A stretch of DNA of 64,000 bases from Candidatus Omnitrophota bacterium (GCA_028712375.1 JAQTQG010000002.1:8032-72031); one strand, 5' to 3'; positions 18,392 through 33,023 are shown, counted from the stretch's first letter. Notes: generated by a model not told the origin, from the sequence alone. Program-made: numbers and translations.

Positions 18392-20093
18392 TTAAGGTCA
18401 TTAATTTATTCACCAACTCTTCACCCCTGGCAGTACTTTCCCCTAAAAACTGAGCGATATTCTGTGCCATCTTAATTTGATGCTCCAGTAATTCCCTGGC
18501 CTGCCCAACGGTCTGGCTTTTTATCTTACGCAGCTTCTGCTCATTATCACGCAAATGCGACACATCCACAAAAATCCCGACATATTGTTTTTCCTGGCGT
18601 AACGCGTAAATCAGTTGATGGCAGGTTAAATTATACCCGCTAAACTCTACGGTTTCCGCTGAATACTCTTGGGCACCACAGGCAATCTTCTCAAAAACTG
18701 CAGGATCCAACACAAATGAAATATGCTTACCAACAGCTGTATCGGCACAAGCGAAAAATTTCTTAAACGCCTTATTCATGCTGATGATCTGTAAATCCTG
18801 GTTTAAAATCACAATCCCGTTGGGGCTAGTCTCGATTATCCGGTCAGTTTTACATTCGGCCAGCCGGCGCATATATGGAATACACATTTCCGGCTCCGCC
18901 AGCCCTTGAATAACCGCAATCGCTTTTTCCCGGCAGCTATTATAACCACAGGCCCCGCAATTAAGCTGATGATCAGGATCAGCTTTGCCGGTTTGCTCAA
19001 ACACCGCCAAAATATCCTCCTGGCTTACCGGCGCACAAAAATCACCGACCTGATGAAAACTGGAACAAAATAAATCCGGGTTTTCAATCAATGGAATGCT
19101 TTTTTGGGCATTTTTCTGACAATACTCCAATAGCTCCTGGCGCCGCTGAAAAACATTAGATTCAACACTCATCACCGGGCTATTAATACAACCTTGGCTG
19201 CAAAAAAGCGGCTCAAGCAGCAAATAATTTTTGCTTTCAGGAACTGCCTCCAGTAATTCTTTGACCTGGCCAAAACCGCTTGCCTGAACTACCTCCATCT
19301 GTAAGCCATCATCTTTAATTCCGGCGGTTTTAAGTAAACCTCCGGGTAAAGGAAAAAAACTTGCCGCTTCCACCGGCTCCTCGTCAAAAGAACTTTCTTC
19401 GCAAGCAGCCAGATCAATACCTGCAACTTGAAACCAATTTTTAAGTTCCGTAAATGTCAATACAGCATCTACCGCCTGCTGTACTTGAGGCCATTGCGCT
19501 TCCGATTTTTTTGCAACACAAGGGCCGATGAATACTGTTTTAGTATCTTTGCCGAGTTTTTCCTTAAGCATACGGCAATGTACCACCATTGGAGAAGCCA
19601 CGGGAATAAGATAATCGATCAGTTGCGGCTGATAACGTTGGACATAATTAACCAGGGCCGGGCAAGCAGTAGCCACGCAGGGGCCTTGTTTTTTCTGCCG
19701 CACAAACCTATACGTAGCATGGGCAACCTGATAAGCGCCTTGCGCTGTTTGTCCGATATAGTTAAAACCTAACCGGCGCAAAGCCGAAGCCAACCGCTGC
19801 CTCTGCCACTGATTAAACACCGCGGCAAATGACGGGGCTATGCTTACCGCTACTTTTTTCCCGGAAGCCAGCATTTCTTGGACTATTTCAATATCGCAAC
19901 GATAAGTTTTAGCCTGCTGCGGGCACTCGCGGATACAAGTTCCGCAGGCAATACAACGATCCTGATCTACATAAGCCTGCCCATGGCGCATCCGGATAGC
20001 TTTTACCGGACAAGCCCGCACGCAGCGATAGCAATCGCGGCAACGCGCTGTTAAGGTAAAAACAGCCTGATTTAGCCCGGCATTATTATTCAT
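18357..20093 (-). CDS. hydS: Sensory [FeFe]-hydrogenase-like protein (HydS type): N-terminal 4Fe-4S ferredoxin domains, degenerate H-cluster domain, C-terminal PAS domain
   Basis: 2x CxxCxxCxxxCP ferredoxin motifs. H-cluster-like motifs diverge from the catalytic consensus (ACPALV for TSCCPAW, GPCVAKKSE for MPCxxKxxE, EPLFCSQGCINSP for ExMACxGGCxxG). A PAS-like segment lies at the C-terminus. Confidence 0.7.
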   Translation of the reverse strand: MNNNAGLNQAVFTLTARCRDCYRCVRACPVKAIRMRHGQAYVDQDRCIACGTCIRECPQQAKTYRCDIEIVQEMLASGKKVAVSIAPSFAAVFNQWQRQRLASALRRLGFNYIGQTAQGAYQVAHATYRFVRQKKQGPCVATACPALVNYVQRYQPQLIDYLIPVASPMVVHCRMLKEKLGKDTKTVFIGPCVAKKSEAQWPQVQQAVDAVLTFTELKNWFQVAGIDLAACEESSFDEEPVEAASFFPLPGGLLKTAGIKDDGLQMEVVQASGFGQVKELLEAVPESKNYLLLEPLFCSQGCINSPVMSVESNVFQRRQELLEYCQKNAQKSIPLIENPDLFCSSFHQVGDFCAPVSQEDILAVFEQTGKADPDHQLNCGACGYNSCREKAIAVIQGLAEPEMCIPYMRRLAECKTDRIIETSPNGIVILNQDLQIISMNKAFKKFFACADTAVGKHISFVLDPAVFEKIACGAQEYSAETVEFSGYNLTCHQLIYALRQEKQYVGIFVDVSHLRDNEQKLRKIKSQTVGQARELLEHQIKMAQNIAQFLGESTARGEELVNKLMTLNEDGEDKAAEL

Positions 20094-22093
20094 AGCGTTT
20101 TCTCAATTCTTTCTTTTATTCTTTCAAAATTGCAATTTTCAAAAATCTCATCGCCGACCCTGACCACCGGACCCCGGTCACATTTCTCAAAACAAAACGA
20201 AGCCTTAACTTCAACCTTATCGCTCAAGTTATTTTCCCGGATATATTCCAACAACTGCCGCAGCAATGCCTGAGCGCCTTTAAGAAAGCATCCTGTGCCA
20301 AAACAAACTACTAGTTCTATTTTCTTATCCGATTCCGATATTGAAGCATTAATCGTTACCCCTTCATCAAAAATACGCTTACGCGTCTTATAATGAGTAT
20401 GCAGCAGGTTATGCGCTTTGTGCCCGCCTACACTCCCCAGAAGATTTTTGTAAAGCTCATTTAAATATGGATTATCCTGGGATTTATGCAATTGCAGCAT
20501 TTTGTCATTTTCATAAATACCTTTGGTGCGTTTTTTCCTTACCGAAGGATCACGGTAAACCGGCTGCCCTGCTCCGCCCACACAGCCCCCCGGGCAGGCC
20601 ATTACCTCCACGAAATCATACTTCAGATTACCCGTTTTCATTTTCTCAATCAGATTCCGCGCATTCTTAAGCCCGCTTACTACCGCTAATTTAAATTCCC
20701 GTCCGCCAAGTGCCACGGATATTTCGCGTATCCCGCTATCTCCGCGCGCCGCCTGAAATTCATAATTATCGCTTTTTTCCCCCGTTATTTTTTCCGTAAC
20801 AAAACGTAATACCGCCTCGCTGACGCCTCCAGAAGCTCCAAAAATAACCCCGGCACCGGTCTTAAAACCAAACGGTAAATCAAAAGATTCCGGCTCCAGG
20901 GATTCAAAATGTAAACCCGCCTCCTCAATCATCCGGCATAATTCCTGAGTCGTAAGCACATAATCCACATCCGCAACTTCTCCGTGCTTAAACTCCGGGC
21001 GCTTAGCTTCAAACTTTTTAGCCGTACAAGGCATAATCGAAACAACAACAATATCTTTCCGGTCAATTCCTAATTGCGCGCTTAACATTTCTTTGCTCAA
21101 AACCCCAAACATCTGCTGCGGAGAACGGCAGCTGGAAATATTTTTAAGCAACTCCGGGTAATATTGCTCCGCAAATTTTACCCAGGCAGGACAACAAGAA
21201 GTAAATTGCGGGATAAGTTCATTTTTCTTAATCCGCTCAATAAATTCATGGCCTTCCTCAATTACCGTAAGATCGGCAGTAAAAGAAGTATCAAAAACCT
21301 TATCAAAACCCATCGCACGCAAAGCTGAAACAATTTGCCCGGTAGAAGTAGCTCCCGGTTCCAAACCAAACATCTCTCCTACAGCCACGCGTACCGCCGG
21401 AGCAATCTGCGCAATCACCACGCGCTTAGGATTATCCAAAGCTTTCCACACTTCTTCTACTTCGGATTTAGGAGTCAACGCACCGGTAGGGCATACCCGG
21501 CTGCATTGCCCGCAATATACGCACTCCACGCTATCTAAATTTTTACCAAAACAAGGCATCACCGCTGATTTAGATCCACGATGAGCAAAATCAATCGCCC
21601 CTACCGACTGTATTTCAGAACACACCCGCACACAATCTCCGCACAATACGCATTTATTGGGATCGCGCACCAATGAATAAGAAGAATCATCCAGCGCTTC
21701 CTGACGCAGAGTATTTTTAAATCTTACTTTTTTAATCCCCAGCTTACTGGCTAAAGATTGTAACTGGCAATGATTGTTCTTCGGGCATGTCGGGCACCCC
21801 TGATCATGATTGGCTAAAAGTAACTCTACAATAATCTTGCGCATTGAACGGATCTGTTCAGTATTGGTACGCACAGACATTTTGTTCTCCGGGGGAGTCG
21901 AGCAGGCAGGCTGCAGTCCGCGCCCCTGAACCTCCACCATACATAACCGGCAAGCCCCATATACGCTTAATTCGGAATGATAACAAAAGGTCGGTAAATC
22001 AATCTTGGCTTTTCGCACTAACTCCAGCAGGTTACGCTCACCTTCCATCTTAACCTGCTTATTATCAATTAAAACATATGCCGCCTCTTTCAT
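20090..22093 (-). CDS. hydA: [FeFe]-hydrogenase catalytic subunit HydA (bifurcating trimeric type) with N-terminal 2Fe-2S/4Fe-4S domains and a C-terminal thioredoxin-like 2Fe-2S domain
   Basis: H-cluster motifs FTSCCPAWV (L1), IMPCTAKKFEA (L2) and EVMACPGGCVGGAGQP (L3), plus the N-terminal CYHSELSVYGACRLC. Confidence 0.92.
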   Translation of the reverse strand: MKEAAYVLIDNKQVKMEGERNLLELVRKAKIDLPTFCYHSELSVYGACRLCMVEVQGRGLQPACSTPPENKMSVRTNTEQIRSMRKIIVELLLANHDQGCPTCPKNNHCQLQSLASKLGIKKVRFKNTLRQEALDDSSYSLVRDPNKCVLCGDCVRVCSEIQSVGAIDFAHRGSKSAVMPCFGKNLDSVECVYCGQCSRVCPTGALTPKSEVEEVWKALDNPKRVVIAQIAPAVRVAVGEMFGLEPGATSTGQIVSALRAMGFDKVFDTSFTADLTVIEEGHEFIERIKKNELIPQFTSCCPAWVKFAEQYYPELLKNISSCRSPQQMFGVLSKEMLSAQLGIDRKDIVVVSIMPCTAKKFEAKRPEFKHGEVADVDYVLTTQELCRMIEEAGLHFESLEPESFDLPFGFKTGAGVIFGASGGVSEAVLRFVTEKITGEKSDNYEFQAARGDSGIREISVALGGREFKLAVVSGLKNARNLIEKMKTGNLKYDFVEVMACPGGCVGGAGQPVYRDPSVRKKRTKGIYENDKMLQLHKSQDNPYLNELYKNLLGSVGGHKAHNLLHTHYKTRKRIFDEGVTINASISESDKKIELVVCFGTGCFLKGAQALLRQLLEYIRENNLSDKVEVKASFCFEKCDRGPVVRVGDEIFENCNFERIKERIEKTL

Positions 22094-23997
22094 TGCCCAC
22101 CCCCGATAATTGCTTTAAACTTACAGGTTGCCACGCAAGCGCCGCATTTAATGCATATTTTTTGATCAATTACATAAGGTTTACCGGGTTGACCGCTGAT
22201 TGCGTTCACCGGGCATTTTTTACCGCACAAAGAACAACCTTTGCATAAATCCGGATTTATTTTATATTTAGTCAAAGCTTTACAGCGCCCTGCCGGACAA
22301 TATTTGTATTTCACATGCGCCTGGTACTCATCGTGAAAATAACGTAAAGTCGATAATACAGGATTCGGTGCGGTCTTGCCTAACCCGCATAACGACCCGA
22401 CCTGCACCGCTTTAGCCAGGTCTTCCAGAATTACCAAAGTTTCATCCGTTGCCCTGCCTTCAATAATATCATCCAATAAAGCCAACATCTGCTTGGTCCC
22501 TTCACGGCAAAGCACACATTTACCACAAGATTCATTTTGGGTAAACTGCATAAAGAAACGCGCGATACTCACCATGCAGGTCTGGCTATTCATGACAACC
22601 AGGCCGCCGGAACCGATCATCGCGCCTACTTTACGCAACGAATCAAAATCCATCGGGATATCCAGGTGTTCCCGAGTCAGGCATCCTCCGGAAGGCCCTC
22701 CGATTTGTACTGCTTTGAATAATTCAGAGCAAACTGTCCCGTCTTCAGCAGTTACTCCGCCGGCAATTTCATAAACAATCTGGCGTAAGGTCGAACCAAA
22801 GGGAACTTCAATCAAACCTGTATTCACCACATGCCCGGTTAACGCAAAAGTCTTAGTACCGCAAGAACCGGAAGTACCCATCTTTGTATAATCTGCTGCG
22901 CCCATTAACACGATCAACGGAACAGTGGCCAAAGTTTCCACGTTATTAATTACCGTCGGTTTACCCCAAAGCCCGCTTTGCGCCGGGAATGGCGGCTTAG
23001 GGGAAGGCATACCGCGTTTACCTTCGATTGATGCCATCAAAGCCGTCTCTTCACCGCAGACAAAAGCACCGGCACCTTCCATTACCTGCAGGTCAAAATT
23101 AAATCCTGAAGCAAAAATATTTTTACCCAGCACCCCTAATTTACGGGCATCTTCAGCGGCTTTACGCATACGGCGTACAGCCAGCGGATATTCAGCGCGC
23201 ACATATACATATCCTTCATCCGCGCCAATCGCTTTAGCCGCGATCATCATTCCTTCAATAACGCTATGTGGATTGCCTTCCATAACGCTCCGGTCCATAA
23301 ACGCCCCCGGGTCACCTTCATCTCCGTTACAAATCACATACTTCTTGTCGCCTTTCTGGCGTAAGGTAATATCCCATTTCTTTCCGGTAGGAAAACCTCC
23401 GCCGCCGCGCCCGCGCAGCCCTGCGGCGATCATTAAATCGCAAACTTCTTGTGGCCGCATAGAACAAACTACCCTGCCTGCGGCCTCATAACCTCCCCGG
23501 TAAATGTATTCACGAATATCTTCCGGATCAATCTGGCCGCACTCTTTAAGGACAAATCGATGTTGTTTTTGATAAAAAGGGATCTCCTTCGGTGTAGTGC
23601 AGGATTTACCGCTGGAAGGCTCAACATATAAAAGACGCTGAATCACTTCACCTTTCATTAAAGTTTTATTTACAATCTCTTCAGCATCCGCAGGCTTAAC
23701 CCGGGTGTAAAAAATATTTTCCGGCAATATCGTTACTAAAGGGCCCATCTGGCAAAACCCCTGGCATCCGCTCTTAGAAACAAAAACAGAACTATCGGCA
23801 ACTTTATCTTCCCGGCGTAGTTCTAAAACCACCGGCAGTCCGCTTTTATGCAGCTGTGCTTCCAGCTGCGCATATACTTTCAATGACCCGTTAGCCACAC
23901 AACCGGTCCCCGCGCAAACAATAACCCTGCGCACCTGCTTTAAACTTTCGGAAAATTCTTCCCGAATAACCTTAAGATCTGGTAACTGCACCGCCAT
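22090..23997 (-). CDS. hydB: NADH-binding flavoprotein subunit HydB (NuoF-like; FMN, NADH and Fe-S binding)
   Basis: GRGGGGFPTGKKW NuoF motif, an N-terminal thioredoxin-like 2Fe-2S region, and C-terminal 2x4Fe-4S ferredoxin motifs. Confidence 0.9.
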   Translation of the reverse strand: MAVQLPDLKVIREEFSESLKQVRRVIVCAGTGCVANGSLKVYAQLEAQLHKSGLPVVLELRREDKVADSSVFVSKSGCQGFCQMGPLVTILPENIFYTRVKPADAEEIVNKTLMKGEVIQRLLYVEPSSGKSCTTPKEIPFYQKQHRFVLKECGQIDPEDIREYIYRGGYEAAGRVVCSMRPQEVCDLMIAAGLRGRGGGGFPTGKKWDITLRQKGDKKYVICNGDEGDPGAFMDRSVMEGNPHSVIEGMMIAAKAIGADEGYVYVRAEYPLAVRRMRKAAEDARKLGVLGKNIFASGFNFDLQVMEGAGAFVCGEETALMASIEGKRGMPSPKPPFPAQSGLWGKPTVINNVETLATVPLIVLMGAADYTKMGTSGSCGTKTFALTGHVVNTGLIEVPFGSTLRQIVYEIAGGVTAEDGTVCSELFKAVQIGGPSGGCLTREHLDIPMDFDSLRKVGAMIGSGGLVVMNSQTCMVSIARFFMQFTQNESCGKCVLCREGTKQMLALLDDIIEGRATDETLVILEDLAKAVQVGSLCGLGKTAPNPVLSTLRYFHDEYQAHVKYKYCPAGRCKALTKYKINPDLCKGCSLCGKKCPVNAISGQPGKPYVIDQKICIKCGACVATCKFKAIIGGGQ

Positions 23998-24481
23998 TTA
24001 AACGCTCCTCTTTCTTTAAAATTTCATCAATAAGTGCTACTGCTTTTCCCGGAGTCATCTGCCCATGCACCTCATCATCCACAACAATAACCGGTGCCAG
24101 TCCGCAAGCACCCAGGCAAGAAACAGTCTCAATTGTAAATAACATATCCGGGGTAGTCATAACATTATCTTTAAGCCCGAGTTTCTGACGCATCGCCTCT
24201 AATAGCCCGGTAGATTTTTTAACATGGCAGGCTGTACCGTCACAGATACGAATAATATATTTGCCTTTAGGTATCAGGGTAAAATGCGAATAAAAAGTAG
24301 CCACCCCATATACTCTGGCCGGGGTTAAATTCAAAGATACCGCAACAAAAGTAAGGATCTCCTCCGGCAGGTAACGGTACTCTTCCTGCACTGCCTGCAG
24401 AATAGGAATCAACCGGCTGGGATCCCGGTTATTCTGCTGAAGTATTTGACAAACTTTTTCTAATTTACGCAATCCTTCCAT
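23972..24481 (-). CDS. hydC: NuoE-like 2Fe-2S subunit HydC
   Basis: Thioredoxin-like [2Fe-2S] ferredoxin motifs ICDGTACHVK and CLGACGLAPV. Confidence 0.9.
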   Translation of the reverse strand: MEGLRKLEKVCQILQQNNRDPSRLIPILQAVQEEYRYLPEEILTFVAVSLNLTPARVYGVATFYSHFTLIPKGKYIIRICDGTACHVKKSTGLLEAMRQKLGLKDNVMTTPDMLFTIETVSCLGACGLAPVIVVDDEVHGQMTPGKAVALIDEILKKEERLNGGAVTRS

Positions 24482-24497
24482 TTCTCTATTTTTCTCC

Positions 24498-25163
24498 TTA
24501 TCTTTCCGCTAATAATAATGCCAGCCGTTTGGATAATACGGCAAGTGAAGACGCTAAGTTTTCATGTTGAACAATAATGCCTTCAGGGACACTTATCTTG
24601 ACCGGAGCAAAGTTCCAAATCGCTTTAATCCCGGCTTCTACCATCATATTAGCAAGTTCCTGAGCAGGCGCAGCAGGCGCAGCCAGGATACCTATTTTAA
24701 TCCCCATGCGCTTGATCATTTCCGGAAGCTTCTTTACCGATAAAACTTTCTTACCCCTGATCTCTTTGCCAATTTTTTCAGGCGAACTATCAAAAGCAGC
24801 GACAATATTTAACCCGTAATCCTTAAACCCCTGGTAACCCAAAAGTGCCGAACCCAGGTTCCCGGTTCCCACCAGATAAGCTTCCGTAGTATTATTCCAA
24901 CCCAAAAAATTCTCAATCGCCTTAATTACCTCTGCTACTTTATAACCGACCTTCGGCCTGCCTTCTGCTCCGGTAATCTCCAAATCTTTACGCACCTGAA
25001 TCGCCAGCGTATTCAAATCCTCGGAAATCCGGGTGCAAGATATGTATTCAACAGGACGATCTTGGACAATCTTTTTTAAATACTGATAATAAACCGGCAA
25101 CCTGCGCAACACCGGCTCAGGAATAACTTTTACCACTAGTTCTGCGGGCCTGGGGTTAACCAT
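24498..25163 (-). CDS. rex: Redox-sensing transcriptional repressor Rex
   Basis: N-terminal winged helix (PEPVLRRLPVYYQYL) and a Rossmann NADH-binding domain (LVGTGNLGSAL). Confidence 0.9.
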   Translation of the reverse strand: MVNPRPAELVVKVIPEPVLRRLPVYYQYLKKIVQDRPVEYISCTRISEDLNTLAIQVRKDLEITGAEGRPKVGYKVAEVIKAIENFLGWNNTTEAYLVGTGNLGSALLGYQGFKDYGLNIVAAFDSSPEKIGKEIRGKKVLSVKKLPEMIKRMGIKIGILAAPAAPAQELANMMVEAGIKAIWNFAPVKISVPEGIIVQHENLASSLAVLSKRLALLLAER

Positions 25164-25348: not shown

Positions 25349-26422
25349 CTACTGCCTTTTGCCACTCTCCCACTCAAAGAAACACTTTCGATAAGCTTTA
25401 AAAGAAGGCTTAACAGAATAATCCCAACGCACTAAACCAAAATAATCAACACCATTGTCCCAATGTTCCCTGGTATCGCGGAAAAAAGCCCAGAAAATCT
25501 TTTCAACATGCTGGTCCTTTAATAATCCGCCATAAACCTCTTTTACCCATTCAGCTTGCTGGCGTTCGTTAGAATTCTGGCCCATCCACCAATTATTTGT
25601 CTTTAATGACGATTTTACTCCCGGGCAGCCGGTCTCGGTTATCCAAATTTTCTTCCCGGCATCACCATTACGCGCCATTATTTTATAGGCAAGCTTAGGA
25701 TAATTAATCACCGCTTTTAAACCATTTTTGCCGTGTAGTGGGCTTTCAAAAAAATGCAGGTTTAATATATCAAAATAATCTTTGGCGCCATTATCATATA
25801 AATGATTAATGCTAGCCAACCCGTTAGCGATACCGCCATTTAAAATCCTGCAATCCTGGTCTATTTTTTTGGCTGCCAGATAAACCTCTTTTAATAAAAC
25901 ACAGTAGGACTTAAGGCTATCCTGTTGCTTCCAGTAAATGACAGAATCCGGCTCGTTCCAAACCTCCCAATGTTTAACCTGGCCCCTATAACGCTGTATA
26001 ACCTTGCCGGCATAATTTACGAATTTTTGATTGTCTCGAGGAGGGCAATTCCATTCTCCGCAGGAGGAAGCCCAGTTTGTGCTATAATGTAATATACCTA
26101 AAATATGAATACCTTTGGCCTTAAGCAATTTAACGAGATTATCATATTTAATAAAATCAAAGCTTCCTTCCTGCGCTTCAATATCTGACCATAAAAAATC
26201 CAGTCTTACCCAGCCGACCCCGGCCTTCTGCATTAAAGAAATAGTTTTCTCCAAGCCGCGCCCGCCGGGATATTTATAATTATTCCAGGAATGGTTCCAG
26301 TGTAAAAATTCCAAGACCCCAAAAGGATTCTCTAAATTTTCCTTCTCCGGCTTTACCATATCGCTCCTTATCTCTTCCTGCCCTGAAATCTCCCCGGCTA
26401 GCAAACTATGAGAAATGAACAA
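25349..26422 (-). CDS. Glycoside hydrolase, clan GH-A (GH5/GH39-like) with an N-terminal signal-like region
   Basis: A WNEPD motif (acid/base Glu in NEP) and an ITETG motif (nucleophile Glu), with TIM-barrel-like spacing. Confidence 0.6.
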   Translation of the reverse strand: MFISHSLLAGEISGQEEIRSDMVKPEKENLENPFGVLEFLHWNHSWNNYKYPGGRGLEKTISLMQKAGVGWVRLDFLWSDIEAQEGSFDFIKYDNLVKLLKAKGIHILGILHYSTNWASSCGEWNCPPRDNQKFVNYAGKVIQRYRGQVKHWEVWNEPDSVIYWKQQDSLKSYCVLLKEVYLAAKKIDQDCRILNGGIANGLASINHLYDNGAKDYFDILNLHFFESPLHGKNGLKAVINYPKLAYKIMARNGDAGKKIWITETGCPGVKSSLKTNNWWMGQNSNERQQAEWVKEVYGGLLKDQHVEKIFWAFFRDTREHWDNGVDYFGLVRWDYSVKPSFKAYRKCFFEWESGKRQ

Positions 26423-26508: not shown

Positions 26509-27882
26509 CTAACGAGGCTCATGGGGTTTTTGCTCAATATTGATATAGTCCCCAAAATCTATCTTTTCGCCGAGCTCTTGTTTCACAACCCTGATCCGGT
26601 CAGGGACATAAGGGTGAGTCTTATAATATGAGCGCTCCCTAAGCGGCATCCTGCGGTTTATATCCTGAAGCTTAATTAAAAAAGTCACCATGCCATGCGG
26701 ATCGTAACCGGCTAACTTAGCATAACGGGCACCCAGCTGATCCGCCAATAACTCATCTTCACGCCCATAACCCAGTAAAAACTCAGTAAAAGCGGCATCC
26801 GCGGCATTACCCACATCCGAAGCACCGGGAGCTACCGCTACCAAAACCCTTAAAATAGAATAGCTCTGCATCGCCTGAAGCTTCTTAATGCTATGCCGGG
26901 CAACAATGTGCCCTACCTCATGCGCTAAAATACAGGCCAACTCATCATCATTAGCCACTTTATCCAACAGGCCGCTGTTCACATAAACATACCCTCCGGG
27001 CAAAGACACGGCGTTTACCTCATCATCCTCTAAAACCCGGAAATGATAATCGATTTCTTTTCTATCGCTGACGGCAGATATCTTTTTTCCGATATCTTCC
27101 ACGCGTTTCTGCTGCAGCGGATCGGCAGAAAGTTTTAATTCTTTCTCTACTCTTAAGTTAATGGACCGGCCCATCTGCACTTCCTTATCCGTACTGTAAT
27201 AATATTTTTCTTCCTGCTTAGTAGCAAGATTATATTCCGTAGAACATCCGGGCAAAACCAGTGCGGCCATCAAACAATAAGTAAGCGTTAAAAAGAATGA
27301 AAATAACTTTATATCAAATTTCTTAAGCATCAAATACAACTTTCTCAAAGGCAGGCCGACTACATTATAGAAACAACCATCTATGCTCTTAATAAAAAAT
27401 GCCCCTTTTCCCTGAATATCAAAACTCCCCGCTTTATCCAAAGGAGAAACTTGTTTAAAATAATTATCAATCTGCGCCTGGCTTAATTTATCCATACAGA
27501 CTCTTGTTTTTTCATAATCCAATATTAAACTCTGCTTAGTTTTATTTTTTTTGATCACTGCCAGGCCGGTGTAAAGCCATTGCGGACGGCGGGATAACTG
27601 TTTAAGCATCCGGCGGGCATCCGGTATATTTTTGGGCTTGCCGAATATTTTGCCATTTTGCACACAAACAGTATCGGCGGCGATGATTACTCCTTCTGCC
27701 ACCCTGGAAGCCACCTCTTCTGCTTTTTCCCGGGCATTCTTCTGCACGAGCTGAGAGTATGACAATTTACCGCGTTTAGCTTGTTCCTTGATTTTAGAAG
27801 GCAGGACTTTAAAACGCAGGCCAAATTTCTCTAATAATTTCTTTCTGGCTTTAGAATTGGAGGCTAAATATATTTTCACCAT
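26509..27882 (-). CDS. Maf-like nucleotide pyrophosphatase fused in frame to a lipoprotein-type M48 (BepA/LoiP-like) zinc metalloprotease
   Basis: N-terminal Maf (MVKIYLASNSKARKKLL ... NVVGLPL). An in-frame internal signal peptide with lipobox (MLKKFDIKLFSFFLTLTYCLMAALVLPGCS) follows. Then an M48 domain (ILAHEVGHIVARHS, THPYVPDRI). The start is set at MVKIY because the upstream ORF extension overlaps a structured noncoding element. Confidence 0.6.
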   Translation of the reverse strand: MVKIYLASNSKARKKLLEKFGLRFKVLPSKIKEQAKRGKLSYSQLVQKNAREKAEEVASRVAEGVIIAADTVCVQNGKIFGKPKNIPDARRMLKQLSRRPQWLYTGLAVIKKNKTKQSLILDYEKTRVCMDKLSQAQIDNYFKQVSPLDKAGSFDIQGKGAFFIKSIDGCFYNVVGLPLRKLYLMLKKFDIKLFSFFLTLTYCLMAALVLPGCSTEYNLATKQEEKYYYSTDKEVQMGRSINLRVEKELKLSADPLQQKRVEDIGKKISAVSDRKEIDYHFRVLEDDEVNAVSLPGGYVYVNSGLLDKVANDDELACILAHEVGHIVARHSIKKLQAMQSYSILRVLVAVAPGASDVGNAADAAFTEFLLGYGREDELLADQLGARYAKLAGYDPHGMVTFLIKLQDINRRMPLRERSYYKTHPYVPDRIRVVKQELGEKIDFGDYINIEQKPHEPR

Positions 27883-27899
27883 ATCTTTACCCATAGATA

Positions 27900-28045
27900 A
27901 ACGGTGAGACTTGTTTAAGCAGCATCTTAAAATTCGAGCGGGCAAGGTTGCCCGCAATAAATGTCTTGGCAGAGCGAGAATTTTACCGAAGCGCAGCTGG
28001 CCACGCTGGGGCCAGCAAGCGGTGCGGCGAGAACAAGTCTCACCG
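27900..28045. other. ~146-nt GC-rich structured element bounded by 13-bp inverted repeats (GGTGAGACTTGTT / AACAAGTCTCACC); candidate small ncRNA or MITE-like insertion
   Basis: Terminal inverted repeats, plus internal hairpins GCGGGCAA-gg-TTGCCCGC and GCTGGCC-acgctggg-GGCCAGC. It is intergenic between the Maf-M48 gene and the HI0933 flavoprotein. Confidence 0.5.
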
Positions 28046-28049
28046 CTAA

Positions 28050-29294
28050 CTAACTTACCGCCGCGCTCTCTCCTGCCAAATACCCGGTTGAGAATGCTGC
28101 CTGAAGGTTAAATCCGCCGGTATCCGCATCCACATCGATCATCTCCCCGCAAAAATATAACCCCTTAACCAGGCGAGACTCCATCGTGCGTGGATCAATC
28201 TGCTTTAAACTTACTCCACCGCGGGTAACCATCCCTTCCTCAATCGGCCGGGGCCCGGAAATATCCAGATGAAAGCTCTTAAGTAAAGAAAGGATCTTTT
28301 CCCTCTCCTTTTGCGTAATCTGGCTGCATTTTTTTAACGGATCAATCCCGGCAACGTCAATAAAAATCATAATTAAACGCAAAGGCAATAACTCTTTAAG
28401 CATGTTCTTTATGCTCTTTTTAGAATTTAACTTAAACTCTCTAAGTAAGCGGGCATCCAACTGCTGAACCGATAAGGCCGGCTTTAAATCTATCTCCACA
28501 AAAACAGCTTTATCCGGCACGCTTAAATCTATAACCTTGCCGCTTAAAGTAATCACCAGCGGGCCGGATATTCCGCCTGCGGTAAAAACCAATTCGCCAA
28601 TCTCTGAAACAATCTCCCGTTTTCCGTCGGAAAATGTAAGCTTAATATTGCGTAAAGTTAACCCTTCCAGCTTTTTTACATAATTTTGTTTCACATCCAA
28701 CGCGACTAAACCGGGCTGCAAAGGGACTATAGTATGCCCTAATTTCTTAGCAATTTTTATTCCGGAAGCATCGGAACCGGTAAAGCTGTAGCTAGCCCCT
28801 CCGGAAGCTAAAATAACACGATCACTGGGAATATCCTGGCCGTTTTCTAAACGCACTCCTTTTGCCTGTCCACCGATAATAATTAAATCCACAACTTTAC
28901 TGCGGAAGGCAATCTGCACCCCGGCCTTAACCAATTCATCTTCTAATACTTTAAGTATGCTGGCAGACCGGTCGGTTTGCGGAAATACCCGCAGTTGACG
29001 TTCGATTTTTAATTTTAAACCACGATCTTCAAAAAAAGAGATCAATTCCTGATTAAAAAATTTCTTAAAAGCATCCCTTAGAAAATCGCCATTTTTGGAG
29101 AAACGTTTTAGAAAATTAGGGAGGTCTTCTGTATTGGTAAGATTACAGCGGCCTTTGCCGCTAAGCAGGAGCTTATTGCCCAGAGTGCTCTTTCTCTCCA
29201 GGAGAATAACCTCCTGGCCCAGAGTGCGCGCCCGGATTGCCGCCATTATACCTGCCGGCCCACCACCGGCTACTAAAATTTTTAATTTTTTCAC
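28050..29294 (-). CDS. HI0933/BaiN-family NAD(P)/FAD-dependent flavoprotein
   Basis: N-terminal GGGPAG dinucleotide-binding motif. ~410 aa HI0933-like architecture. Confidence 0.8.
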   Translation of the reverse strand: MKKLKILVAGGGPAGIMAAIRARTLGQEVILLERKSTLGNKLLLSGKGRCNLTNTEDLPNFLKRFSKNGDFLRDAFKKFFNQELISFFEDRGLKLKIERQLRVFPQTDRSASILKVLEDELVKAGVQIAFRSKVVDLIIIGGQAKGVRLENGQDIPSDRVILASGGASYSFTGSDASGIKIAKKLGHTIVPLQPGLVALDVKQNYVKKLEGLTLRNIKLTFSDGKREIVSEIGELVFTAGGISGPLVITLSGKVIDLSVPDKAVFVEIDLKPALSVQQLDARLLREFKLNSKKSIKNMLKELLPLRLIMIFIDVAGIDPLKKCSQITQKEREKILSLLKSFHLDISGPRPIEEGMVTRGGVSLKQIDPRTMESRLVKGLYFCGEMIDVDADTGGFNLQAAFSTGYLAGESAAVS

Positions 29295-29301
29295 GCAACA
29301 C

Positions 29302-29865
29302 CTAGCCTAAACCGAAATCTGCAATCTTAAAGATCGACTCTAGTTTTAATCCTGCTTTAGCTAAGCTCTCAGCAGCACCCTGGTTGCGGTCAACAATCAC
29401 GATTGCCTTCTCGGCGATTACTCCAATTTTATCCAAAGCCTGTTTAGCCTCCAGGATCGCTTTACCGCTGGTAGCCACATCATCAACCAAAACTACCCGG
29501 CTTCCTTTTTTAAGCGCCGGCCCTTCCACCTGTTGCTGCGTTCCATGCTCTTTAGCCTGCTTACGCACAATAAAAGTATTCACCGGTTGCCTGTTAATAT
29601 AGCTTATCGCGGCCAAAGCGCCGGTGATAGGATCGGCCCCCAAAGTCGGCCCGCCAATTGCATCAAAAACATCATCCTTAAGCATACCTAAAATAATATT
29701 AGCCGTCAAATAAGCCCCCTGCGGGCTTAAAGTAATTATCCGCCCATCGAGGTAATAGTTGCTTTCTTTGCCTGAAGAAAGGATAAATTTACCCCGCTTT
29801 AAGGCTTCGCGGTTTAATAAATCGAACAGTTCTTTTTTTAATTCCGCCGAATTTAATTTTTCCAT
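29302..29865 (-). CDS. pyrE: Orotate phosphoribosyltransferase
   Basis: PRPP-binding VVLVDDVATSGKAILEA. Confidence 0.85.
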   Translation of the reverse strand: MEKLNSAELKKELFDLLNREALKRGKFILSSGKESNYYLDGRIITLSPQGAYLTANIILGMLKDDVFDAIGGPTLGADPITGALAAISYINRQPVNTFIVRKQAKEHGTQQQVEGPALKKGSRVVLVDDVATSGKAILEAKQALDKIGVIAEKAIVIVDRNQGAAESLAKAGLKLESIFKIADFGLG

Positions 29866-30023: not shown

Positions 30024-30755
30024 ATGTTCCGGGGGTTATTAAAAGGCTTAAAGGATTTATTTTATCCAAACTGTTGTTTAATTTGTGGAAATATAATCCA
30101 GATACCTGACCGACAGGAATTAATCTGTGCCAGCTGTTGGGATAGTCTTGAGAAAAACCTGCCCCCTTTTTGCGCCAGCTGCGGCAGGCACCTGGGCCCT
30201 GAAGCAATAAAAAGAAATACTTGTCCGAGCTGCTCAAAATATAAAGAAAATTTTTATTTTGACCGGGCTTTCAGCCCTTGTGTATACACCGGCTCCGTAA
30301 AAAAACTGATTCATGAATTTAAATACTCGGGTAAGGATTATCTGGGTGCATTTTTAGGAAAACTGATGAATACTTTTATCCGGGATTATCAATTACCCAT
30401 CGCATACCTTGATTTCATTATCCCTGTGCCGTTGCACAGCAGCCGAAAAAGAGAAAGAGAATTTAATCAGGCAGAAATCTTAGGCCGTAAAATTGCGGAT
30501 GAATTCGGAAAAAAAATCCTAACCGATGCCCTTATCCGCAGTAAACCTACAAAAACGCAAACGGAGCTTACTTTCGGGCAGCGCTGCCGTAATATCGAGG
30601 GATGTTTTACAGTAACCAATCCGGAATTAATTAATAATACAAATTTACTAATCATCGATGATGTATTGACCACTGCTGCTACCGCAAACGAAGCAGCCAA
30701 ATGCTTAAAGAAAGCCGGAGCCAAAAAAGTACTCCTTTTAACTTTAGCTAGCTAA
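30024..30755 (+). CDS. comFC: ComF family protein (phosphoribosyltransferase domain with N-terminal Cys4 zinc finger)
   Basis: CLICGN...CASCW...CASCG zinc ribbon and a C-terminal PRTase motif LLIIDDVLTTAAT. Confidence 0.8.
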   Translation: MFRGLLKGLKDLFYPNCCLICGNIIQIPDRQELICASCWDSLEKNLPPFCASCGRHLGPEAIKRNTCPSCSKYKENFYFDRAFSPCVYTGSVKKLIHEFKYSGKDYLGAFLGKLMNTFIRDYQLPIAYLDFIIPVPLHSSRKREREFNQAEILGRKIADEFGKKILTDALIRSKPTKTQTELTFGQRCRNIEGCFTVTNPELINNTNLLIIDDVLTTAATANEAAKCLKKAGAKKVLLLTLAS

Positions 30756-30762
30756 CTATGAA

Positions 30763-30837
30763 CCCCGCACCTTCCATATATCCAACTATTAAAACCGTGC
30801 GGGATAACAAATTAAATGAGAAAGAAGGTGCGGGGTG
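30763..30837 (+). promoter_or_regulatory. Inverted-repeat hairpin sequestering the lptF Shine-Dalgarno and GTG start (CCCCGCACCTTC...GAAGGTGCGGGG-TG)
   Basis: 12-bp arms separated by ~49 nt. The 3' arm contains the SD GAAGGTG and ends in the GTG start codon. An identical module sits upstream of radA at 49076-49147. Confidence 0.6.
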
Positions 30838-31938
30838 AAGATCCTGCGTAATTACATTTTAAGGGAATTCCTCGGTCCGCTGCTTCTGGTTTTGGGAGTG
30901 TTGACCTTTGTTATGGTGCTTATCGGCAATTTAAAACGCATCGCGGATCTAGTGATTAATAAAGGAGTGGATATCTTTAGTGTCATCCAGATTTTCATCT
31001 ACCTTACTCCTTATATTGTTACTTATACCTTGCCCATATCAATACTAGTGGCAGTATTACTGGCTTTAGGCAGATTAAGCGGAGACAATGAAGTAATCGC
31101 AATCCGCGCCAGCGGCATCAACTTATTTAAATTAATACTGCCCTTACTAACCATCGGATTAGCCTTGAGTTTAGCCCTGGCAGTTTTTAACGACCAGGCA
31201 GCATCCTATTCCCATTTTGCTTACCGCAAAACCTTGCAGGAAATGGGGATTAAAAATCCTACTGCCGCCTTTGAAGAAGGAGTATTTATTGATTCCTTCA
31301 AAAAATACATTCTTTTTATCTACAATGTTGACCAGAAAAAAAACCGGCTCAATAACATCCGCATCTATGAACCACAGGGCGAAGACCGGCCCACTCGCAC
31401 GATTGTGGCGAAAGCCGGAGAATTTATTACTGTGCCCGGTAAAAACACCGTAAAATTGAAGCTTATCGATGGAACCAGTGATGAGCCGGATCCGGAGAAC
31501 CCGACTAATTTTTATAAACTAAATTTCCGTACCTACTTCATGAACCTGGATATGGCACAAATGCAGGATAAGGTTGTAGAAAAGAAATATAAAGAAATGA
31601 CAATCCGCGAACTCAAAAAAGAAGCGGCTAAGCTTAAATCCGAAGGCATCAGCCCGGCGCCCCTAATCACCAAAATACATGAAAAACTAGCTTTGGCATT
31701 CTCCTGCTTTGTTTTCATGCTTCTGGGATCCTCATTGGGAATTATTACGCGCAGGCGCGAAAAATCCATTAACATCGGAATTGCCGTACTGATCATTGTC
31801 TGCTACTATCCTTTATATATCGGCTTAACCGCGCTGGCTATGGAAGGAGCTTTACCGGCAGCACTTGCCATCTGGTTGCCGAATATTATCTTTGCCGGTG
31901 TAGGCAGCTATTTAACTTATAAACTATGCGCATCTTAG
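30835..31938 (+). CDS. lptF: LPS export ABC transporter permease LptF (YjgP/YjgQ family)
   Basis: 6-TM YjgP/YjgQ architecture with a periplasmic beta-jellyroll insert. GTG start. Paired with lptG. Confidence 0.8.
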   Translation: MKILRNYILREFLGPLLLVLGVLTFVMVLIGNLKRIADLVINKGVDIFSVIQIFIYLTPYIVTYTLPISILVAVLLALGRLSGDNEVIAIRASGINLFKLILPLLTIGLALSLALAVFNDQAASYSHFAYRKTLQEMGIKNPTAAFEEGVFIDSFKKYILFIYNVDQKKNRLNNIRIYEPQGEDRPTRTIVAKAGEFITVPGKNTVKLKLIDGTSDEPDPENPTNFYKLNFRTYFMNLDMAQMQDKVVEKKYKEMTIRELKKEAAKLKSEGISPAPLITKIHEKLALAFSCFVFMLLGSSLGIITRRREKSINIGIAVLIIVCYYPLYIGLTALAMEGALPAALAIWLPNIIFAGVGSYLTYKLCAS

Positions 31939-33023
31939 ACCGCTACATCCTAAAATCAATTATTCATATTTTCATTTCCTGCATTTTTGTATTCCTCTTC
32001 CTCTATATCGTCATCGACTTGTTGTCTAATTTAGATGAAGTATTAAAACATCAGACTACTTTGGCCTTACTCATACGCTATTATCTTTCATATCTGCCGA
32101 TTATGTTCGTACAGGTCTCCCCCTTTGCCTGCCTCCTAAGTACGGTTTATACTTTCGGCAAGCTAAACCACAATAATGAAATTATTGCCATGCGTTCAAG
32201 CGGCTTAAGCATATTTGAAATCGCCCGTAATGCCCTGATTTTCGGCTTGCTGATTAGTTTTACAGTATTTTGGGTAAATGACCGGCTTGTGCCCAGTTCT
32301 CTGGCGGAAAATCAAAAAATTAAAATCCAGATTGAAGAAGGCACGAAAGGCAAACCTAAAAAAAATGAAGCAATTACTAACCTCACCCTCTACGGCCTAC
32401 GAAACAGATTATTCTTTATCAGCAGATTCTTGCCAGCTGCAAAAACCATGGAAGGAATTACTATACTTGAACAAGATGAACATCAAAACTTGACTAAAAA
32501 AATCATCGCTACCCGGGGAGTTTATCAGGATGGATTATGGAGATTTTTTCAAAGCATCACTTATAAATTCGATAATAACGGACAGGTAATTGATGAACCA
32601 AGCTACCTGGAAGAAGAAATTATGAGTATTCCGGAAACCCCCGAGAACCTTGCATCTTTGCGCCAGAAACCGGAACAAATGAACATACGCCAAATGCAGG
32701 ATTATATCTGGATACTCTCTAAAAGCGGAGCTACCACCGTCATCCGCAACTTAAAAGTAGACCTCTATCAGCGTTTTACTGCGCCATTTACCAGCATCAT
32801 AATTATACTATTAGGAATACCGTTTTCTCTGATGATGCGCAAACGCGCAACAGGAATGTCTTCTGTCGGGGTTTCGATTATCGTGGGTTTTCTTTATTAT
32901 GTTCTGGAGGCTATCTGCCTGGCTATCGGAAAATCCGGGTTAATCCCACCTATTCTGGCTGCCTCATTAAGCCACATTATCATTTTATCCGGAAGCCTCT
33001 ATCTTATTTCAAAACTACCCTAA
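31926..33023 (+). CDS. lptG: LPS export ABC transporter permease LptG (YjgP/YjgQ family)
   Basis: Paralogous YjgP/YjgQ permease that overlaps the lptF stop. Confidence 0.8.
   Translation: MRILDRYILKSIIHIFISCIFVFLFLYIVIDLLSNLDEVLKHQTTLALLIRYYLSYLPIMFVQVSPFACLLSTVYTFGKLNHNNEIIAMRSSGLSIFEIARNALIFGLLISFTVFWVNDRLVPSSLAENQKIKIQIEEGTKGKPKKNEAITNLTLYGLRNRLFFISRFLPAAKTMEGITILEQDEHQNLTKKIIATRGVYQDGLWRFFQSITYKFDNNGQVIDEPSYLEEEIMSIPETPENLASLRQKPEQMNIRQMQDYIWILSKSGATTVIRNLKVDLYQRFTAPFTSIIIILLGIPFSLMMRKRATGMSSVGVSIIVGFLYYVLEAICLAIGKSGLIPPILAASLSHIIILSGSLYLISKLP

Follow-up and report, generated by a model that had tools for sequence, protein, structure and literature searches.

A Maf–M48 protease fusion conserved in Omnitrophota with a predicted internal lipoprotein signal at its junction

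Bacterial polyproteins that are split at an internal signal peptide are rare; one is FbcH of Bradyrhizobium japonicum, the cytochrome b–c1 precursor. In lipoprotein precursors the signal is N-terminal, with the cysteine lying within roughly the first 15–35 residues (PROSITE PS51257), and the usual lipobox, [LVI][ASTVI][GAS]-C, follows a basic n-region and an uncharged h-region. Maf nucleotide pyrophosphatases carry the signature S-R-E-K-D-K (Ser10, Arg13, Glu33, Lys52, Asp70 and Lys82 in YhdE; Tchigvintsev et al., PMC3899018), and their two characterised subfamilies differ in a second motif, which is R12-T71-Q153 in YhdE and W-Q-E, with an aromatic residue at position 12, in YceF (PMC3899018). 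Here we describe maf::M48, a gene on the minus strand (27882..26509) of a 64,000-nucleotide stretch of DNA from a Candidatus Omnitrophota bacterium (GCA_028712375.1; JAQTQG010000002.1:8032-72031), the whole of which we call the window. In maf::M48 a complete Maf is joined in frame to an M48 metalloprotease by a hydrophobic segment with a lipobox. We consider it moderately probable that the product is a natural polyprotein, whose internal lipoprotein signal is inserted, lipidated and cut.

The closest described systems resemble this protein in part. Like FbcH, it is encoded by one ORF (open reading frame), and cleavage at its internal signal would give a product on the cytoplasmic or membrane side and an exported product. 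Unlike FbcH, it has a lipobox of the signal peptidase II type and a soluble enzyme at its N-terminus, and its cleavage is a prediction. In eukaryotic ASMTL (PDB 2p5x; Maf plus a methyltransferase-like domain), Maf is likewise the N-terminal module of a two-domain protein, but both ASMTL domains are cytosolic and functionally related, whereas the partner in maf::M48 is a predicted exported protease joined through an export signal. Full-length Maf/YhdE-type pyrophosphatases (B. subtilis Maf, 1ex2; E. coli YhdE, 4p0e) share with the fusion the Maf fold, as judged by sequence, together with the full S-R-E-K-D-K signature; the Thr and Gln of the YhdE R-T-Q motif are present in the fusion as T71 and Q157. 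They differ from it at position 12, where the fusion has an invariant Ala, and at the C-terminus, which in the fusion runs into a hydrophobic signal segment and not a stop codon. LoiP/YcaL-type M48 lipoproteins, the BepA protease domain and PDB 3c37 share its HExxH motif, downstream Glu and THP His; small M48 lipoprotein proteases differ from it in that the fusion's signal peptide is internal and its Cys is at residue 213.

A single conserved ORF encodes Maf and an M48 protease

ORF listing and translation showed that maf::M48 is one ORF of 457 codons plus stop (26509..27882, minus strand) with no internal stop. The initial annotation had these coordinates right and gave no strand, which we add. 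Translation from the ATG at 27882 yields a product beginning MVKIYLASNS that is identical to NCBI MDD5129630.1, from a Candidatus Omnitrophota metagenome-assembled genome (MAG). A mechanical ORF call (26509..27957) begins at a TTG 25 codons further upstream (window 27883-27957, minus strand), and a second upstream ATG is found at 27894. Since homologues and the NCBI protein begin MVKIYL or MKIYL, the true start is likely 27882.

The Maf domain (residues 1-193; 27304..27882, minus strand) is complete to the natural Maf C-terminus by Pfam, NCBIfam and alignment. Pfam PF02545 matches residues 3-189 over positions 1-187 of a 187-position model (E 1.3e-55; 188 bits against a cut-off of 27), and the NCBIfam model TIGR00172 (maf) scores 171 bits against a cut-off of 117. 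The predicted mature M48 lipoprotein spans residues 213-457 (26512..27246, minus strand); within it, Peptidase_M48 (PF01435) matches residues 255-435 over model positions 1-184 of 186 (E 4e-33; 115 bits against 20.3). The HEVGH motif is at residues 321-325 (nt 26922..26908) and THP is at residues 422-424. The ORF and the Pfam matches together confirm what the initial annotation had described, a complete Maf domain in frame with a complete M48 domain and no stop between them.

To see how widely the fusion is shared, 5.8 billion proteins were searched and the 120 best matches were taken (74-100% identity, about 100% coverage). All 120 carry both Pfam domains in 427-464 amino acids (aa); many independent metagenome projects contributed them, and where a source organism is named it is nearly always Omnitrophota. 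A second scan, of one genome per GTDB species, gave at least 80 loci at 63-87% identity, to which counts out of 80 refer throughout. The Maf-to-M48 frame is uninterrupted in 80/80 of them, the stop-free run from NVVGLP to HExxH having been verified by script in 79 and by inspection in L064. Clustering at 50% identity added further fused clusters that are about 40-46% identical to the window protein (P0122, P0124, P0126 and P0288-type). A search for the same fusion in related genomes, which the initial annotation had proposed, was therefore positive, and its outcome shows that many Omnitrophota do encode the fusion as a single protein. The architecture, unrecognised in the initial annotation, is indeed uncommon, and our literature search found no paper describing a Maf–M48 fusion; it is not new to annotation pipelines, as some homologues are already named "Maf and M48 domain-containing protein" by NCBI. 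Separately, we saw the same gene and synteny in MAGs labelled 'uncultured Planctomycetales', 'Margulisiibacteriota', 'Patescibacteria group' and 'Candidatus Methanoperedens' (e.g. L002, L057, L065 and P0066); these labels are probably taxonomic mislabels or reflect binning contamination.

The catalytic residues of both enzymes are preserved. The Maf signature S10-R13-E33-K53-D70-K82 is intact, each position being invariant or nearly so in the best 120 homologues, and the M48 zinc site (H321, E322, H325 and E377) and the THP His (H423) are all invariant in the same set. The invariance of the Maf signature, HExxH, E377 and H423 argues that both domains are under purifying selection. The subfamily motif of the Maf domain, A12-T71-Q157, is neither the R-T-Q of YhdE nor the W-Q-E of YceF. 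Ala12 (codon at window 27847-27849) is invariant in the fused family and occupies the position of the base-pocket Arg of YhdE-type and the Trp of YceF-type enzymes, so that substrate preference in the fused family may differ from that of both characterised subfamilies.

The closest solved relative of the Maf domain is B. subtilis Maf (1ex2; E 4e-33), and that of the protease is PDB 3c37, a Geobacter M48 family peptidase (E 9e-35); the BepA protease domain ranks next (E 3e-19). The initial annotation had called the protease LoiP/BepA-like. A relationship to lipoprotein-type M48 enzymes holds, but both equivalog cut-offs are missed. The BepA equivalog NF052400 gave 109 bits against a cut-off of 570 and matched only model positions 42-251 of 483, and NCBIfam and Pfam matching found no TPR region in the fusion protein; an identification as BepA was ruled out on both counts. 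NF052399 (LoiP) gave 60.7 bits against 365, which likewise ruled out the LoiP equivalog.

The junction and its predicted export signal

The junction reads NVVGLP, LRKLYLMLKKFDIK, LFSFFLTLTYCLMAALV, LPGC213 and STEYN, is stop-free, and has no linker after Maf. Its first element, LRKLYLMLKKFDIK (residues 179-192; 27307..27348, minus strand), is the basic C-terminal helix of Maf, which by alignment and codon survey doubles as the n-region of the signal. It is followed by the h-region LFSFFLTLTYCLMAALV (residues 193-209; 27256..27306, minus strand), assigned from hydrophobicity, length comparison and a structural model, and by the lipobox L210-P211-G212-C213 (27244..27255, minus strand), in which conservation points to Cys213 as the predicted lipidation site and to G212/C213 as the predicted cut by signal peptidase II (LspA). 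The initial annotation had placed a whole signal peptide with a lipobox here. We retain the h-region and the lipobox; MLKKFDIK, by contrast, is Maf's own C-terminus. The end of B. subtilis Maf (1ex2, 189 aa), ALRHFDIR (to residue 188), aligns with MLKKFDIK192 of the fusion, and stand-alone Omnitrophota Mafs terminate in QMLKKFDIHAL or MLKKFGVHAL directly before the stop codon.

Conservation is strongest at the lipobox. Gly212-Cys213 is invariant in 120/120 best homologues, and [LIAV][SATYC]-G-C is kept in 162/162 fused proteins collected, with the Cys present in all and a conserved mature N-terminus after it. The family consensus is L-[S/A]-G-C, and the n-region ahead of the h-region is rich in K and R throughout the family. 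Ahead of the Cys, fused proteins have a median of 15 uncharged residues, and many have 9-13, against a median of 14 in stand-alone M48 lipoprotein homologues; by this measure the hydrophobic stretch of the fused family is of signal-peptide length and not of anchor length. That short h-regions are cleaved and long ones anchor is a principle set out for the endoplasmic reticulum system in PMC2120157. At about 255-270 aa, these stand-alone proteins are ordinary lipoproteins whose mature N-terminus, GC(A/S)TEYNLAT, is the same as that of the fusion. As in FbcH, a signal peptide with its signal-peptidase site preserved lies inside a single ORF; Cys213 lies behind a complete 193-residue Maf, outside the N-terminal position typical of lipoprotein precursors. 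As a separate observation, a regular-expression scan of the window found a single ORF with a conventional N-terminal lipoprotein signal, MVNKIKILLVLFMLCICGC followed by ATVPV, about 360 aa long and running downward from about 14698 on the minus strand. Since this ORF carries an ordinary lipobox, such lipoboxes appear to be used in the host genome.

We infer the membrane insertion, lipidation, cleavage and subsequent fate of Maf as follows. The Maf domain would fold in the cytoplasm, and its basic C-terminal helix LRKLYLMLKKFDIK would serve as the n-region for an h-region and lipobox inherited from a formerly separate M48 lipoprotein gene. Sec, with the signal recognition particle, would insert the hydrophobic segment N-in/C-out, and the M48 domain would be translocated. 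Lgt would then lipidate Cys213 and LspA would cut between Gly212 and Cys213, leaving the mature M48 zinc protease as a lipoprotein in the periplasm and Maf in the cytoplasm. The signal peptide that Maf retains would initially act as its tail anchor, and signal-peptide peptidases might later free it. The main effect of the fusion would be co-translation and compaction, and not a new joint activity.

Several points weigh against this scheme. The lipobox of the window protein, L-P-G-C, has a Pro at -2 that occurs in 1/157 fused sequences; this residue falls outside the usual lipobox and could make the site a poorer substrate for Lgt or LspA. The hydrophobic stretch of the window protein is 20 residues, which is long enough for a stable anchor. 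An AlphaFold2 model (mean pLDDT, the per-residue confidence, 71.6; pTM, the global score, 0.47) gave no confident inter-domain arrangement, and its residues 194-233 have pLDDT <50 and are uninformative on the junction. No characterised natural LspA substrate is known to us in which 190 residues of cytoplasmic domain precede the signal peptide, and a literature search on LspA acting behind a large N-terminal domain, on natural internal lipoboxes and on polyprotein lipoproteins returned nothing relevant. Finally, the window gene has an ATG at codon 185, after which a signal peptide with a basic n-region could be read.

This last point leads to the best-surviving alternative, in which ribosomes begin at Met185 and make an ordinary M48 prolipoprotein, the full-length product being minor or non-functional. 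As a significant contribution in this genome we regard it as unlikely, though it may be a minor route there. The initial annotation had offered an internal Met as the start of the protease; as a general mechanism such initiation is contradicted by a survey of 81 genes (the 80 species loci and the window). Codon 185 (window nt 27330..27328) is ATG in 47/81, which fits internal initiation, but is something else in 34/81: ATT, ATA or ATC in 32, AGC in one and TTA in one, so that Ile stands at this position in about 40% of the fused genes. In 19/81 there is no ATG, GTG or TTG anywhere from residue 177 to the last basic residue of the n-region, and a further 15/81 have only a TTG or GTG, poorly placed, in the n-region. 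At 5-18 nt upstream of codon 185, 19/81 genes have a Shine-Dalgarno (SD)-like 4-mer, which coincides with an ATG in just 13/81; none was found in that range in the window gene, whereas unfused relatives have a clear SD (GAGG) in the spacer. Met185 is, moreover, a native Maf residue that is also conserved in stand-alone Mafs. Because 19/81 genes are without a start, codon 185 varies and Met185 is native to Maf, internal initiation was rejected as the family's general export route, and Met185 is not a conserved initiator of the protease. We also considered an internal promoter, for which a sigma-70-like match at 27392..27364 was a candidate; it was rejected, as 16 such matches occur in the region against 10.4 expected, which is chance level and lends the match no weight.

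A second alternative leaves the protein uncut. The hydrophobic segment would then be a permanent signal anchor, with Maf at the cytoplasmic face and M48 at the periplasmic face of one two-sided bitopic enzyme. The initial annotation had raised such a membrane anchor linking a cytoplasmic Maf to a periplasmic protease; the arrangement can be envisaged, but we think it improbable, and a little more so than internal initiation. It would account for the 20-residue stretch and the Pro at -2 in the window protein, it needs no precedent for LspA behind a large N-terminal domain, and it sits well with the stability of the fusion in more than 80 species. It would, however, leave the invariant Gly-Cys at the periplasmic end of 162/162 proteins without a reason, and the 9-13 uncharged residues before the Cys in many members are too few for a stable transmembrane helix. 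Close relatives encode the parts separately, as a soluble Maf and an ordinary M48 lipoprotein, and parallel fusions of Maf to DUF192 keep signal peptidase I sites. We therefore favour cleavage over a permanent anchor because of the invariant lipobox and the signal-peptide-like hydrophobic length (median 15 residues), and because of the signal peptidase I sites in the sister fusions and the free interchange with unfused genes.

If the polyprotein is cut as proposed, a further and rather doubtful idea is that the retained signal peptide tail-anchors Maf, and that either the freeing of Maf or its synthesis in a 1:1 ratio with an envelope quality-control protease couples envelope biogenesis to the nucleotide-pool and division-arrest activity of Maf. 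Were this so, it would give Maf its first physical connection to the cell envelope, and would be the first natural LspA processing of a lipobox behind a large cytoplasmic domain.

Unfused and differently fused relatives

A 326-aa Maf–DUF192 protein (P0219), taken from the search of 50%-cluster representatives, was used as the query for unfused and DUF192-fused relatives. The Omnitrophota clusters it found comprise 60 stand-alone Mafs (192-193 aa), 41 Maf–M48 and 19 Maf–DUF192 proteins. Four loci, L096 (GCA_015233705.1; 4393-6926) and L097-L099, hold an unfused pyrE–maf–M48 lipoprotein–DUF192 operon. In these the maf stop codon is followed by a spacer of 5-10 nt with an SD (agaggtcgct or gaggc) and by the M48 gene's own ATG start, which opens MTARLSLACCFLPVILLLSGC continuing as SGISSNFNTAT. 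At L093 (4447-6022), pyrE–maf–DUF192 is unfused as well; maf and DUF192 overlap by 4 nt, and DUF192 has its own signal peptidase I signal, MKDSNSLLLKITCFLLLFSSICHA followed by G. The stand-alone M48 protein P0128 has an ordinary N-terminal signal peptide, MQRLFILVALGFFLCGC followed by ATEYNLAT, with the same mature start as in the fusions. No maf–M48 adjacency was found on the contigs of the closest stand-alone cluster proteins, P0127, P0128 and P0167.

Maf has also been joined to DUF192 (PF02643), in P0219 and P0271-P0287. The two parts are connected by an internal signal peptide with an h-region, and most of these proteins keep small residues at -3 and -1, a small-x-small site of the signal peptidase I type (e.g. 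GIGPVQA before ASPQVCH). At L094 (5001-5987) the maf::DUF192 junction reads MLKKFGVS, ILFFIFLILGIGPVQA and then ASPQVCH, and L095 is likewise Maf–DUF192. In P0219 and P0271 DUF192 follows an M48-type lipobox signal, the arrangement that a deletion of the protease would leave. The DUF192 fusions and unfused operons share with the Maf–M48 fusions the same locus, with comF, lptG and lptF diverging from pyrE and maf, and a retained downstream export signal; the DUF192 fusions also share the junction point, after the Maf C-terminal KKFG(V/I)xxL. They differ in the partner domain and in the type of signal peptidase site, which is AXA-type in most DUF192 fusions, and the window lineage departs from DUF192 fusions and unfused operons alike in an extra HI0933-like gene between pyrE and maf. 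In every fusion the short n-region of the downstream gene has been swapped for the Maf C-terminus, while the h-region and cleavage motif are retained. We also noted a tandem Maf–Maf protein of 423 aa with two full Maf domains (P0231), which is unrelated to the lipoprotein fusions.

The relationships among these architectures are not those of a single fusion event. An unfused Maf is 83%, and an unfused M48 75%, identical to the matching parts of some fused proteins, whereas identity between the window's fused protein and the fused group that resembles the unfused genes is only about 42%. These identities point to several fusion or fission events. In a neighbour-joining tree built from Maf domains the three architectures are intermixed; the tree lacks support values, and we rely on it only in combination with the identity comparisons. 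The pyrE–maf–M48–DUF192 and pyrE–maf–DUF192 operons likely represent the ancestral arrangement, and the fusion would have arisen in the tightly packed pyrE–maf–M48–DUF192 operon by loss of the maf stop and the 5-10 nt spacer. The suggestion in the initial annotation that the Maf stop codon had been lost agrees with the stop, SD-bearing spacer and protease ATG of the unfused relatives. Some lineages do have maf and M48 as distinct genes divided by a stop codon at the junction; the initial annotation had taken this as a sign of error, but it reflects interconversion and not an artefact. Such interconversion of fused and unfused states is to be expected if the products act separately after cleavage.

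That the maf stop in this MAG was lost through faulty sequencing or assembly, or by inactivating mutation in the recent past, is scarcely credible: some relatives do keep separate genes with a stop at the junction, but the same uninterrupted ORF recurs in 120 protein clusters and at least 80 independent species-level assemblies from many studies, the junction sequences have diverged while the stop-free frame was conserved, and residue conservation is strong in both domains.

As far as the profile matches go, both domains are typical of their Pfam families, and the fusion alone does not indicate a joint Maf–protease function, which is disfavoured because fused and unfused states interconvert easily. 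What our literature search found no description of is the mode of joining, in which the basic C-terminal helix of a cytoplasmic enzyme appears to act as a lipoprotein n-region in hundreds of genomes, with natural unfused and DUF192-fused versions at the same locus. If cleavage is confirmed, maf::M48 would encode a naturally occurring bacterial polyprotein that signal peptidase II splits, and its relatives would provide evolutionary controls for the handling of internal signals by Sec, Lgt and LspA and for the fate of a signal-peptide-bearing cytoplasmic protein. There is also a caution for annotation, in that the names "Maf family nucleotide pyrophosphatase" and "septum formation protein" hide a predicted exported protease.

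Genomic neighbourhood

maf::M48 belongs to a conserved pyrE–(HI0933)–maf::M48 cluster transcribed from the minus strand. Its first gene, pyrE (orotate phosphoribosyltransferase; 29302..29865), is present in 65/80 listed loci, and between it and maf::M48 lies a co-directional gene for an HI0933-like/TIGR00275 FAD enzyme (28050..29294), found upstream in 71/80. Downstream and co-directional is a glycoside-hydrolase-like gene (25349..26422, minus strand; 58/80), the true start of which is probably inside the ORF. Divergent from pyrE, on the plus strand, are a comF-like phosphoribosyltransferase gene and then lptF and lptG (30024-33023; about 45-48/80). Since LptF and LptG are encoded in the window, the host is diderm. 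The divergent ComF-like/lptF/lptG arrangement also occurs in the distant lineages L085, L093, L096 and L097; in L085, a lineage at about 40% identity, comF and lptGF diverge from pyrE and maf::M48 without the flavoenzyme. Directly downstream of the maf::M48 neighbourhood, a gene for a Rex-like redox regulator (24498-25163) is followed by NuoE-like, NuoF-like and HydA-like genes (window 20090-25163, minus strand), which together form an electron-bifurcating [FeFe]-hydrogenase-type cluster.

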